Virus record (IMG/VR): IMGVR_UViG_2778261513_000004
Source: a virus
Lineage: Duplodnaviria > Heunggongvirae > Uroviricota > Caudoviricetes
Reading direction: 5' to 3' (one strand)
Length of the DNA: 42,950 nucleotides
Shown: positions 27,001-30,000 of the stretch, piece after piece
How positions within the stretch are numbered: position 1 is the stretch's first letter
Layout of the letters: each line of letters begins with the position of its first letter
Made by a program: the position numbers

Positions 27001-30000
27001 ATTCAAATAGATTTCTCCGAGTAATATAATCATTTGCTTTTCACCAGAGGATAACTTGTCAAGTCCTATTGTGCCACCTTCAGTTCTCATCACAAGTTCG
27101 TTTTTCTTCGATAATAGAAGAGTTTTTCCATTTTGGAAGAACATTCTAAAAACTTCAAAAAAATCATCTCTACTTCTGAATATTTCAATTTTCTTCTTTT
27201 TGAGAATCTCATAGTCTGCAATTAAAGACCTTGTCCTCCAAGCATTATACATAACACCAAAATCAGTTAAAGACATTGGCCCACTGCCATCACGTTCTGA
27301 AACATCTTTAAGACGTTTCAAATAATAATCCAGTCGACTACTATCATAATTACTTTTATTTTCATTCATAAACGAAAGCATTTCATGCAAGGAAGAAGCT
27401 TCTTTTTCAATATCAATTTTACTGTTAAATTCGAATATCGAATTTTCGCTCGGAACATCTAATAATTTATTAAATATACTTTTTTGAAAATTACTTGCTA
27501 TTCTATTATATGCCTGAGACTGCCTAGAGAACTTACTTATTAAAGCGGATTTAATTGCGTTTAGCTTTTCATCAACCGGATCACTGCCTTCATTATTAAA
27601 ATAATCATGTTCGTCATTATCACCTCTTCCCTTTCTTGAAAGTGGAATCAGGCTAAGTTGTGATATTTTAGATACCATAACTTTTAGTTCCATTACCCTT
27701 CCTTCAAGCAAAAAATCATATTCGTCATTACTTAATTCATATTCAGATATAACGCCTTGCTCTGTATATATGGAATAAGTCATATTTCCATCACCATTTT
27801 TCGCGACCATTATTACATGATTTCCATATAGACTAACAATAGCTCTTGAAAATGACAGCAAATACATTTGCTTGACATCCACTGAAAGCAAGGCACAGAT
27901 GATGTTAATAACAGTAGTTTTACCTGCACCATTTGACCCAATCAGGAAATTCATGTCTTTGTTAAAAGACAGTGATATATCTTTATACCCCCAGATTCCC
28001 CACGCCTTAAAAGAACTTATTTTACTCATCTTTCATCCTTTAGTTAATGTTCACCATAAATATCGTTATCGGTTACTTTGCCTGAACAGTTATAAAAACT
28101 CAAATTGAAGATGCTCTTTTTCTGGAAATATTTTAGGGTAAACTGATTGCAACCAGTAATAGTTGCTGACCTTACTACCAGCATCAGGATTTTGGTCATA
28201 TCTAAGTATGCATATGCTTTCCCAAAAGATACCGATACACACTAATGAATCGGGACGTTATGGCACATAAATCAGAGAAGGAGGTTTGTTGTCTCATAGC
28301 CCCCAATTTTGGGGGACAGGTTTGAAAATAGTAGAGAAAAGTCAGCGTTGACCTGGCTCCCTAGGATAGCCCATAGATTACTAAACAGTTCGTGGTATCA
28401 GAACACAGTAAAATCTGAAAGTCGACAAGAGCGAAAAGCAGAAGTGATATGTGTGAACGATGAAATAGCCAGCTAAAAGAATGACGACCAAAGCAGTGAC
28501 GATTCAGACGTCCGTTCCTGGCACGAAGCGGACAAGTTACCGGAGCTGAAGATCCGCTGTGAGCGAGAAACGGAAGTTGGTTTGCTGGTAGCAATCTAAA
28601 AGTGAATGGTCCGGTTAAGTTGGGCGTTTACAGTTACTCGGCAAACTACTCCAGCTTGATGAATAAGTATTTTTAATAAATTTCAGCCCGCGATGCCGCG
28701 GACATTCATACGGGCTGTTATATTACCAGATTAAGGTGTCACTAAAGGTGTGGTGTGGCTACCTATCACGTATTCTTTCAGAAAAAGACGTACTTCTGAT
28801 TAGAAAGGAATATCATCGTTCTTAACGGCATCATCAGAGATGAGAGCACCTGTTGGCAGAGGTACATTACTTACAGTATATAAATTAAGAATGTCTTCCC
28901 GGTCCATAAATATTATCTGGCTTCTTTTGCTGGCATCAAGTTTCCCGCCCAGCCAGTTCCTCGCCTGTTTAGTAATTTCTCCGCCAGCAACGATAAAGGC
29001 ATGATCTACCAGCACCTTTCTATTTGTTTCTGGGTCAAATATTTCATGACCAAGCATCATCAGTACCTGGTTGAAGATTTCTGCCACGTTTGAATTCGTA
29101 GATTTGCTGGCACCGGACGCATCCAACTTACCTTTTTTTGCCTGAATGCCGAAATAAAGAACATGCTGAGTTGGCAGTGTGAACTTCATCCAGATGTCTT
29201 TCCCGTATTCCAGCGCTTTATCTTTATGTCCCACTGCTGTTATCCGGTGAAAACCAAGTTGCCGGAATAAAGGAAGGAGAATATCTTCTATTAACTCATC
29301 TTCTGAGCAGGTATCAAGAAACGCGGTCAGTAACCTTCTGCATTCTACTTCGTGAGGCGTTAAGGGGCGATGAGGGTTATTACTGACAGAAACCGTTTTG
29401 GTATCGGTATGGCGTATATACAAAAGGCGATCGTCACCATAGAATGCCTCATAGCCTTCCCGCATCAAAGGCTTGTTCAGTTCTTCAAGCGCCTTTAATC
29501 TTCCTGGATCGTCATCCATTGCATCTTCTTTTAACATTAAAGTTCTGAGCACATGAACAAACCTTTCCGGCAAAGTATGTGGCTTTGACTGTGGCTCATA
29601 AAGAAGTTCTTCAAGCCTCTGGGCCGTCCATTTCCACCGAGTTGATCCGTCATGAGTAACATCCATGCCGCAGTCCTGGAAAAATTCAGTGATGTGGCTG
29701 CTTGAACGATACAGAAATGCCTTATTATCTCCTATGATACATTCCGCGAGAGCCTTGAGGTTTTTGTCCTTAAATTTCATGTGTAATAATCTCCCCCTCG
29801 TTTAGAATATAGAATTAATTGCAGGCACCGCTTGTTCGGGTGACTGTTAGCGGTTCACTACTCATTACCACTTATTCATACAAAGAAACACCCGAGGCAG
29901 TTGTTGGACAGGTATAAGTGGCGGAACCTTCATACATTAAGTGTCTCCCCATCATAATGGTGTCAAAACGTCACGGCAACAGGATTAACAAACTCCCGTT

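Follow-up and report, generated by a model that had tools for sequence, protein, structure and literature searches.

Trigger-dependent release of AriB and cleavage of tRNA are attributes of the anti-phage system PARIS. PARIS (AriA/AriB) is found in the hotspots of P2 and P4 (PMC9122126, PMC11464382), at which the mechanism of exchange was left open, with recombination near cos only speculated upon (Rousset et al., PMC9122126), and how anti-phage systems hop between unrelated mobile elements is poorly understood. Shuffling of cargo is familiar from integrons, from the pdif modules of Acinetobacter plasmids and from phages of the T4 type, where conserved stem-loops called PeSLs flank non-essential genes in hyperplastic regions, with modular shuffling and mini-circles (PMC2839356). 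Here we describe a PARIS locus in a stretch of viral DNA of 42,950 nucleotides (IMG/VR record IMGVR_UViG_2778261513_000004, hereafter the window), a lambdoid prophage resembling Rac that carries replication genes and genes of the nin type. Our subject is the interval 28030-28799, a gap of 770 bp between the ATPase gene of PARIS, ariA (26827-28029, minus strand), and the gene for a protein of 326 amino acids (aa; 28800-29780, minus strand). This interval is very probably where two gene cassettes meet in the cargo array of a prophage, and not a regulatory RNA; more tentatively, the palindromes that mark it could well be sites of an undescribed, integron-like cassette-exchange system, widespread in Gammaproteobacteria, which, with a mobile recombinase of 200 aa, would carry defence and other cargo between P2-like and lambdoid prophages, conjugative plasmids and genomic islands.

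A preliminary description of the window had presented the interval as one long noncoding spacer. The gap itself was confirmed (no open reading frame, ORF, of more than 78 aa was found in 28030-28799), but the view of a single spacer does not hold, as the interval is made up of two adjoining cassettes that are separated by recombination sites, and its strongest features, a 51-codon ORF at 28044-28199 and palindromic sites at 28510-28533 and 28552-28575, had gone unremarked. Megablast of the gap against 5426 complete E. coli genomes found a match for bases 1-504 (28030-28533) in one genome only, that of E. coli AZ159 (95.8% identity), and matches of at least 99% for bases 524-770 (28553-28799) in 188 genomes, while no genome held both parts together. 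The AZ159 match belongs to a 3-kb block, window positions 25513-28533 at 96.5% identity, which in AZ159 (locus L001) separates the tail-fibre assembly genes of a P2-like prophage from its tail-sheath genes. The match in the 188 genomes (exemplified by locus L002) runs on into the 326-aa gene in the same kind of lambdoid prophage, and there the hokD side follows directly, without PARIS. L002 corresponds to the window over 28553-30113 (at 99%) and 24306-25528 (at 81%), and relative to it the block inserted in the window is 25529-28552. By comparison of these loci, the block 25513-28533 can be shown to move as one unit between the P2-like hotspot and the Rac-like lambdoid prophage.

Palindromes of 24 bp with a 9-6-9 architecture lie at the borders of these cassettes. 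They are of two types, A and B, with like arms and different centres: inverted 9-bp arms, GTCCGCTnn / nnAGCGGAC, enclose a 6-bp centre, and the consensus is GTCCGCTCC TGGCAC GGAGCGGAC for A and GTCCGCTGT GAGCGA GAAGCGGAM for B (shuffling the window gives an expectation of 0.00 for matches to the site pattern with up to 3 mismatches). On the plus strand, the far border of the PARIS cassette is a B-type site, GTCCGCTTT GAGCGA AGAGCAGAC (25514-25537), and its near border an A-type site, GTCCGTTCC TGGCAC GAAGCGGAC (28510-28533), at the end of which (28533) homology to the P2-like prophage stops. An 18-bp linker (28534-28551) joins this A site to a second B-type site, ATCCGCTGT GAGCGA GAAACGGAA (28552-28575, plus strand), which borders the cassette of the 326-aa gene, and an A-type hybrid site, TTCCGCTTA TGGCCC AAAACAGAC, lies at 30098-30121 on the same strand. 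A residual slot of 65 nt, common to the P2-borne copy, runs from a relic B site to the A site (28445-28509). Read along the minus strand, the order is thus B (28575-28552), linker, A (28533-28510), slot, dead B (28444-28421), the leader and front part of a lipoprotein gene, ariA, ariB and B (25537-25514).

The A-linker-B composite of about 70 bp is present in 101 enterobacterial plasmids and in 1256 of the 5426 complete E. coli genomes, at 1-5 places in each and always in unannotated DNA. It was seen at a prophage end beside pinE and tail-fibre genes, alongside island-type genes (YagK/YfjJ, DUF932, antirestriction), in a P2-like prophage where it separates tail-fibre assembly from sheath genes, in lambdoid nin-type regions and on IncF plasmids, and the flanks of the composites are unrelated right up to the arms. 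IMG/VR was surveyed by two pattern scans (more than 200 loci), and 456 sites were scored in 206 viral-contig loci, in 200 of which all sites are co-oriented. The 136 transitions from B to A all exceed 300 bp (median 1.7 kb), and 55 of the 69 from A to B span 30 bp or less, a spacing that gives the grammar B-cargo-A-linker-B-cargo-A. The cargo (210 ORFs in 142 protein clusters) includes Old, AriA, PtuA, GajA, AbiL, mad3, TIR, reverse transcriptase, DarT, AbiV and GmrSD, along with regulators, transporters and enzymes; its genes lie on either strand with their own upstream regions and, because both strands are used, the sites appear to be elements of the DNA rather than of an RNA. Neither a U-tract nor a promoter was found at the A and B sites.

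Where the joints fall was examined on 210 A and 224 B unique sites, from which pairs were taken that share one flank (at least 90% over 60 nt) and are unrelated in the other. In the 277 pairs of B sites that have the left flank in common, identity on that side was 0.99 at position 4 and 0.95 at position 8, and across the centre it was 0.39 at position 16 and 0.42 at position 17 (background 0.44 and 0.38). For A sites with the right flank shared (209 pairs), it was 1.00 and 0.93 at positions 16 and 17 on the shared side and, across the centre, 0.68 and 0.63 at positions 8 and 9 (background 0.46 and 0.57). Identity therefore switches between positions 9 and 16, suggesting that exchange is confined to the invariant 6-nt centre; a 9-6-9 site with a central crossover is the architecture of a tyrosine-recombinase core site. 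In the window, the B site at 25514 has the left arm and the centre GAGCGA of L002 and the right arm of the P2-borne cassette, and the B site at 28552 is its converse, identical to L002 from the centre onward. The A site at 30098 shares its left half with the L002 site downstream of a recombinase gene, and in its right half it is like the L002 site at 11387, 3.8 kb away; on these resemblances, it is the scar expected of an AxA deletion removing the recombinase cassette and two more cassettes. The lipoprotein cassette, compared in five contexts, has kept its inner arms and has had its outer arms swapped. From such alignments the joints of the block can be shown to lie inside A and B sites.

The recombinase gene just mentioned stands beside the 326-aa cassette in L002, the cassette-free prophage most closely related to that of the window, and encodes a tyrosine recombinase of 200 aa (WP_023147793 is an example); the window has no such gene. 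The protein has little beyond the catalytic domain (Pfam PF00589; best NCBIfam XerA, 1.2e-14), and the catalytic residues R51, K79, H148, R151, H174 and Y183 are invariant in 16 sequences. Its gene is present in 848 of the 5426 E. coli genomes (recombinase-positive strains include UK_Dog_Liverpool and clone D i2) and is represented by proteins 77-95% identical across the Gammaproteobacteria (Proteus, Providencia, Pantoea, Idiomarina, Cycloclasticus and others). Half-sites bound the gene in about 24 distinct contexts, L261 being the one exception: a context-specific left arm followed by TCGCTC (half-B) precedes the ATG by about 65 nt, and on the other side, past a hairpin of the gene's own and about 17 nt from the stop, GTGCCA (half-A) leads into a context-specific right arm. 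The slot that it occupies is A-to-B, as for the lipoprotein cassette. Relatives of about 60% identity in IMG/VR (L263, L264, L267 and L285) are arranged as site, gene, own hairpin and site, with the centre CGGCCA and an inner hairpin TAGCGACGGTC...GACCGTCGCTA, and these differences suggest that enzyme and site have co-evolved and that there are more families of sites. From the association with half-sites, we infer that the 200-aa recombinase is the candidate enzyme for the A and B sites. In marine metagenome and Cycloclasticus-type contigs (L232-L235) the recombinase cassette lies between arsenic- and copper-resistance gene clusters in an element that looks like an integrative conjugative element; if so, the site system would also border metal-resistance cargo outside the enterobacteria.

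On this reading, A and B would be the core sites of a site-specific recombination system in which exchange between like sites (AxA, BxB), taking place inside the centres, leads to insertion, deletion and swapping of cassettes among prophages, plasmids and islands, the catalyst probably being the catalytic-domain-only recombinase of 200 aa, itself a cassette bounded by A/B-type sites. Several points weigh against it. The window and most arrays lack the recombinase (it lies within 15 kb in 6 of about 217 site-selected loci, on which ground a role as a cis-linked part of every array was rejected), no DNA-binding N-terminal domain was obvious in it and a sequence search of the PDB gave no match. 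The centres of A and B differ, and a model of circles with one site fails to explain units of the form B-cargo-A. The 277 and 209 breakpoint pairs are not phylogenetically independent. Covariation in the stems is weak, with mostly one-sided breaks of pairing; the sites behave as conserved sequence motifs, and beside this the composite can fold as one long attC-like hairpin; a hairpin selected for its structure was dropped as a candidate because the pair statistics are mainly one-sided breaks. A literature search on the A and B sites found no description of them, but priority is uncertain in view of a paper of 2004 that deals with site-specific recombination at the hotspot of P2.

The distance of the recombinase from most arrays and the weak covariation of the stems would also suit a different account, in which A and B are passive punctuation (terminator-like repeats, or repeats like miniature inverted-repeat transposable elements, MITEs) and the mosaicism comes from general or phage homologous recombination, for which the centre, as the longest invariant stretch, would be a bias as well. 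However, only 7-8 invariant bases are present, which is too short for efficient exchange by RecA or Red, and the switch between positions 9 and 16 is sharp in both site types. Nor does passive punctuation account well for the strict co-orientation and the alternation of A and B; terminators or promoters are opposed by the lack of a U-tract or promoter, and the use of either strand by the cargo speaks against a role in RNA. A catalytically complete tyrosine recombinase bounded by A/B half-sites, with distant relatives whose centres co-vary, further argues against this account, which we consider rather unlikely. Tested as MITEs or insertion sequences, the composites have outer arms that are inverted repeats, show no visible target-site duplication in 41 cases and number 1-5 copies per genome. 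A sigma-54 promoter (TGGCAC), lambdoid nut/boxB, attC, dif, gix/cix and REP/ERIC were rejected on sequence or architecture.

The system of A and B sites resembles integrons, pdif modules and PeSLs in its logic, yet fails the defining features of each. As in integrons (IntI, attC/attI), the cassettes are diverse, often of a single gene, many of them anti-phage, and are separated by imperfect palindromes of about 60-70 bp; insertion and excision by a tyrosine recombinase, here an inferred one, is a further likeness, as is the long attC-like hairpin that the composite can form. Unlike attC, in which structure is conserved and sequence varies between the ends RYYYAAC...GTTRRRY, the A and B sites are conserved in the sequence of their arms and centres, and their breakpoints lie in the centres and not at a terminal GTT. 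Also unlike integrons, two heterospecific 9-6-9 sites alternate and the cargo stands on either strand with its own upstream regions; neither the window nor the loci examined showed a platform of IntI, attI and Pc, and the only recombinase found is the 200-aa protein inside arrays. This candidate is restricted to a catalytic domain and is itself a cassette, and the arrays are inside prophages, plasmids and islands. The pdif modules (XerC/XerD, Acinetobacter plasmids) similarly hold cargo between short palindromes of the tyrosine-recombinase core type, with 6 bp at the centre, and move between replicons by shuffling, but pdif sites occur as inverted pairs whereas A and B are co-oriented, the site sequence is unrelated to dif, and a dedicated small recombinase is implied here instead of the host XerCD. 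The 9-6-9 architecture is similar to the 11-6-11 of Xer/dif sites, though the arms GTCCGCTnn have no likeness to dif. With PeSLs (PMC2839356) the sites share the principle of short conserved elements of stem-loop type around shuffled cargo; PeSLs, however, combine a promoter and a terminator and work by homology, whereas A and B have no promoter or U-tract and their breakpoints are within a 6-nt centre.

One PARIS block thus occurs both at a P2 hotspot and in a nin-type region of lambdoid kind, its joints lying inside defined 24-bp sites, and such sites delimit more than 140 other cargo cassettes and lie unannotated in about a quarter of complete E. coli genomes. If the recombinase acts on the A and B sites, the turnover of defence hotspots would have a simple mechanism that is open to test, new cargo genes could be sought between sites, and the compact heterospecific pair of sites with its enzyme might serve for cassette exchange.

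The part of the seam nearest to ariA is a decayed gene, an option that the preliminary description had named and that alignment to relatives, which it had proposed, bore out. The ORF at 28044-28199 (minus strand; start MTKILMLVVRSATITGC...) is the 5' remnant of a gene for a lipoprotein with a TolA C-terminal domain, consisting of the first 50 codons followed by His-stop, with the stop 14 nt upstream of the ariA ATG. Homologues, recovered with a conserved 22-nt motif of the leader, came from Enterobacter mori and Citrobacter genomes and from seven metagenome contigs, to which a plasmid copy truncated by IS1 is added. An intact lipoprotein of 134 aa with the TolA C-terminal domain (Pfam TolA_C PF06519, 4.8e-13) is encoded in eight loci, and the window ORF aligns to the first 50 residues of these homologues (BLASTP, 61% identity, E=9e-19); the TolA_C domain is absent from the 51-aa ORF, cut at codon 51. 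DNA homology to the intact cassettes extends from about 28047, through the leader, to about 28450. In gene orientation, the intact cassettes run from a B-type to an A-type site, and their B sites (L006, L007 and L217-L223) align with a degenerate B-type site in the window, GTCGACAAGAGCGAAAAGCAGAAG (28421-28444, plus strand), which by this alignment is the relic upstream border of the lipoprotein cassette, at the exact position of that border. The B-type site that precedes the lipoprotein cassette in L223 has three tandem copies of its left arm (GTCCGCT GTCCGCT GTCCGCT TTTCGCTC...), an unusual case of a half-site amplified locally. A circle with a single site, as the complementarity of the two cassette-side arms (GTCGGCT / AGCCGAC) of the lipoprotein cassette would suggest, was discarded because it fails in the Citrobacter copy.

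Codon differences between the remnant and an intact copy amount to 8 synonymous and 19 nonsynonymous, against 9 and 3 at matching codons between intact copies, and the two remnant copies (window and AZ159) differ by 0:3, all nonsynonymous, one of them changing the lipobox Cys to Trp in AZ159. By these counts the remnant is shown to be decaying under relaxed constraint. It could still be argued that the ORF encodes a small lipoprotein which is functional and has been recruited to PARIS as its third component, as the window copy retains its ATG, a signal-peptide-like N-terminus and the lipobox ITGC, and sits in operon position before ariA. Against this are the 8:19 ratio, the all-nonsynonymous differences between the copies with the loss of the lipobox Cys in AZ159, the Arg-Ser that breaks the hydrophobic core in the window copy, the complete loss of the TolA domain and the absence of any such ORF from the other PARIS loci examined, and we find this proposal scarcely credible. 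A third copy of the front part of the lipoprotein gene was seen on an Enterobacter cancerogenus plasmid (L003, 4248-5090), where IS1 cuts it after codon 28; the gene has been truncated twice, independently.

Between the remnant and the relic B site lies the leader and upstream region that, from the alignments to intact cassettes, was inherited with the lipoprotein cassette (28200-28420, minus strand). It holds the G/C-clamped palindrome CCCCCAATTTTGGGGG, which is present at 28300-28315 just as described earlier, and the stretch CCTCCTT, which is the antisense of the AAGGAGG that had been taken for a strong Shine-Dalgarno-like sequence. That motif was located where expected, at 28278-28284, but it is only the antisense of a pyrimidine-rich stretch in the inherited leader with no conserved ORF downstream; a small plus-strand ORF after it was rejected as its frames and stops vary between homologues. 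The CAGCCCG/CGGGCTG stem is likewise real, although it lies at 28684-28690 / 28711-28717, about 5 nt to the left of the position first given. Taken singly, these hairpins are unremarkable, at about 1.3-2 standard deviations below shuffles (RNA fold z-scores of -1.3 for the G/C-clamped hairpin and of -2.0 / -1.6 for the stem at 28684-28717). An ORF of 77 aa does exist (28361-28594), yet it is on the same strand as the flanking genes and not antisense as it had been labelled, and since it spans two recombination sites and the mosaic breakpoint, it is not conserved as a unit.

A regulatory RNA was another function proposed for the interval. The spacer would then encode a leader that acts in cis, or a small RNA, serving the PARIS operon alone: some 500 bp accompany ariAB in both contexts that are known, about 10 homologues share a block of about 150 nt that includes the G/C-clamped hairpin, and PARIS relatives have 400-500 bp of noncoding DNA upstream too. 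The conserved block, however, belongs to the lipoprotein gene and precedes an intact lipoprotein in all the other loci, and the upstream sequence of the PARIS relatives is unrelated. The leader has also diverged as much as the dead ORF (73-80% against 78-81% identity). Covariance models of Rfam, a check which had been recommended, gave no match in the gap at E values up to 10 apart from noise at E>6, ARAGORN found no tRNA or tmRNA there, and a search of a phage database with the spacer returned nothing. RNAalifold on 5 leader sequences found no conserved structure beyond the palindrome, there being too little variation, with an unfavourable covariation term (+1.6) and compensatory changes in 4 of 33 pairs. 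An RNA dedicated to PARIS is therefore very improbable; a false lead is removed, in that there would be no hidden RNA gene here and the PARIS operon would borrow the front of a dead lipoprotein gene. In copies of the palindrome from L003, L006, L007 and L217-L223, homopolymers of C4-C9 / G4-G9 surround an AT loop, which is TAAAAT in most intact copies, and this variation in length may reflect slippage-prone tracts overlapping a -10-like hexamer.

Downstream, ariA (Pfam AAA_21 2.6e-23 and AAA_15 1.2e-18; PADLOC AriA 2.6e-41) is followed immediately, after 6 nt, by ariB (25918-26820, minus strand), which encodes an effector of 300 aa of the DUF4435/Toprim type (Pfam DUF4435 1.2e-8; PADLOC AriB 4.2e-9). 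With an AAA_15/AAA_21 ATPase and an adjoining DUF4435/Toprim protein, both genes expected of PARIS are present and the pair is, by its domains, a PARIS defence system, as in the P2/P4 hotspots, one copy being situated between the tail-fibre and sheath genes of a P2-like prophage. It is a new member of the known family: its two copies aside, the nearest relatives of the window AriA are about 52-54% identical, this type of PARIS is rare (1 of the 5426 complete E. coli genomes) and no relatives of AriA were found in IMG/VR. In a relative of about 52% identity, in an Enterobacter lambdoid prophage, the order is an rcA half-site, about 225 bp of upstream DNA, ariA, ariB and an rcB site; this upstream region of about 225 bp is AT-rich, starts at a half A-type site and is unrelated to that of the window. 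Unlike in the other PARIS loci, the native upstream region in the window is swapped for the lipoprotein-gene remnant.

The simplest history of the seam would have two steps. In an ancestral array, the lipoprotein cassette would have stood directly upstream of the PARIS cassette, and one deletion would have taken away the 3' two-thirds of the lipoprotein gene, the intervening A site and the native PARIS promoter. As a consequence of this loss, ariAB would now be read from the promoter and leader of the lipoprotein gene, the remnant of which ends 14 nt before ariA, a gene that has its own AAGGA ribosome-binding site. The earlier suggestion of a promoter for the ATPase/Toprim operon in the interval is thus plausible by position, since the native PARIS upstream region is missing, but no consensus sigma-70 promoter was found: a scan of 27950-28850 for consensus promoters and terminators detected no usable one on the minus strand, and inspection of the aligned leader by eye gave no convincing -35/-10 pair. 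By its position, the lipoprotein promoter would probably drive ariAB, with the leader 28200-28420 as the presumed source of transcription, and the empty promoter scan counts against this. Such a remnant and such a seam are what cassette turnover ordinarily leaves. The fused cassette in a lambdoid context is not unique to the window, because a 21.8-kb food-metagenome contig from ENA (L222) has B-linker-A, leader, 51-aa remnant and ariA arranged as in the window.

In L001, the PARIS block B...A is flanked by inverted repeats of the backbone, AATCTGACAG / CTGTCAGATT (3465-3480 and 6505-6525), with AGTTTTT following the CTGTCAGATT repeat; it looks as if a terminator-like hairpin between the operons for tail fibre and sheath had received the block in its loop. 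On the other side of the seam, the cassette of the 326-aa gene has its 3' flank at 28576-28799 (minus strand), with 99% identity in the 188 E. coli genomes, and the stem at 28684-28717 within this flank is possibly a weak terminator, without a U-tract. The 326-aa protein has no match in Pfam, NCBIfam or PADLOC, occupies a B-to-A slot and is 99% conserved in the same 188 genomes, making it an orphan candidate for a cargo or defence gene. Two type I toxin-antitoxin loci stand on either side of the cargo region, a Hok-family toxin ORF with its sok antisense RNA at 24885-25210 (Rfam gathering match, 105 bits) and the small RNA antitoxin RalA at 41216-41394 (Rfam gathering match, 197 bits).

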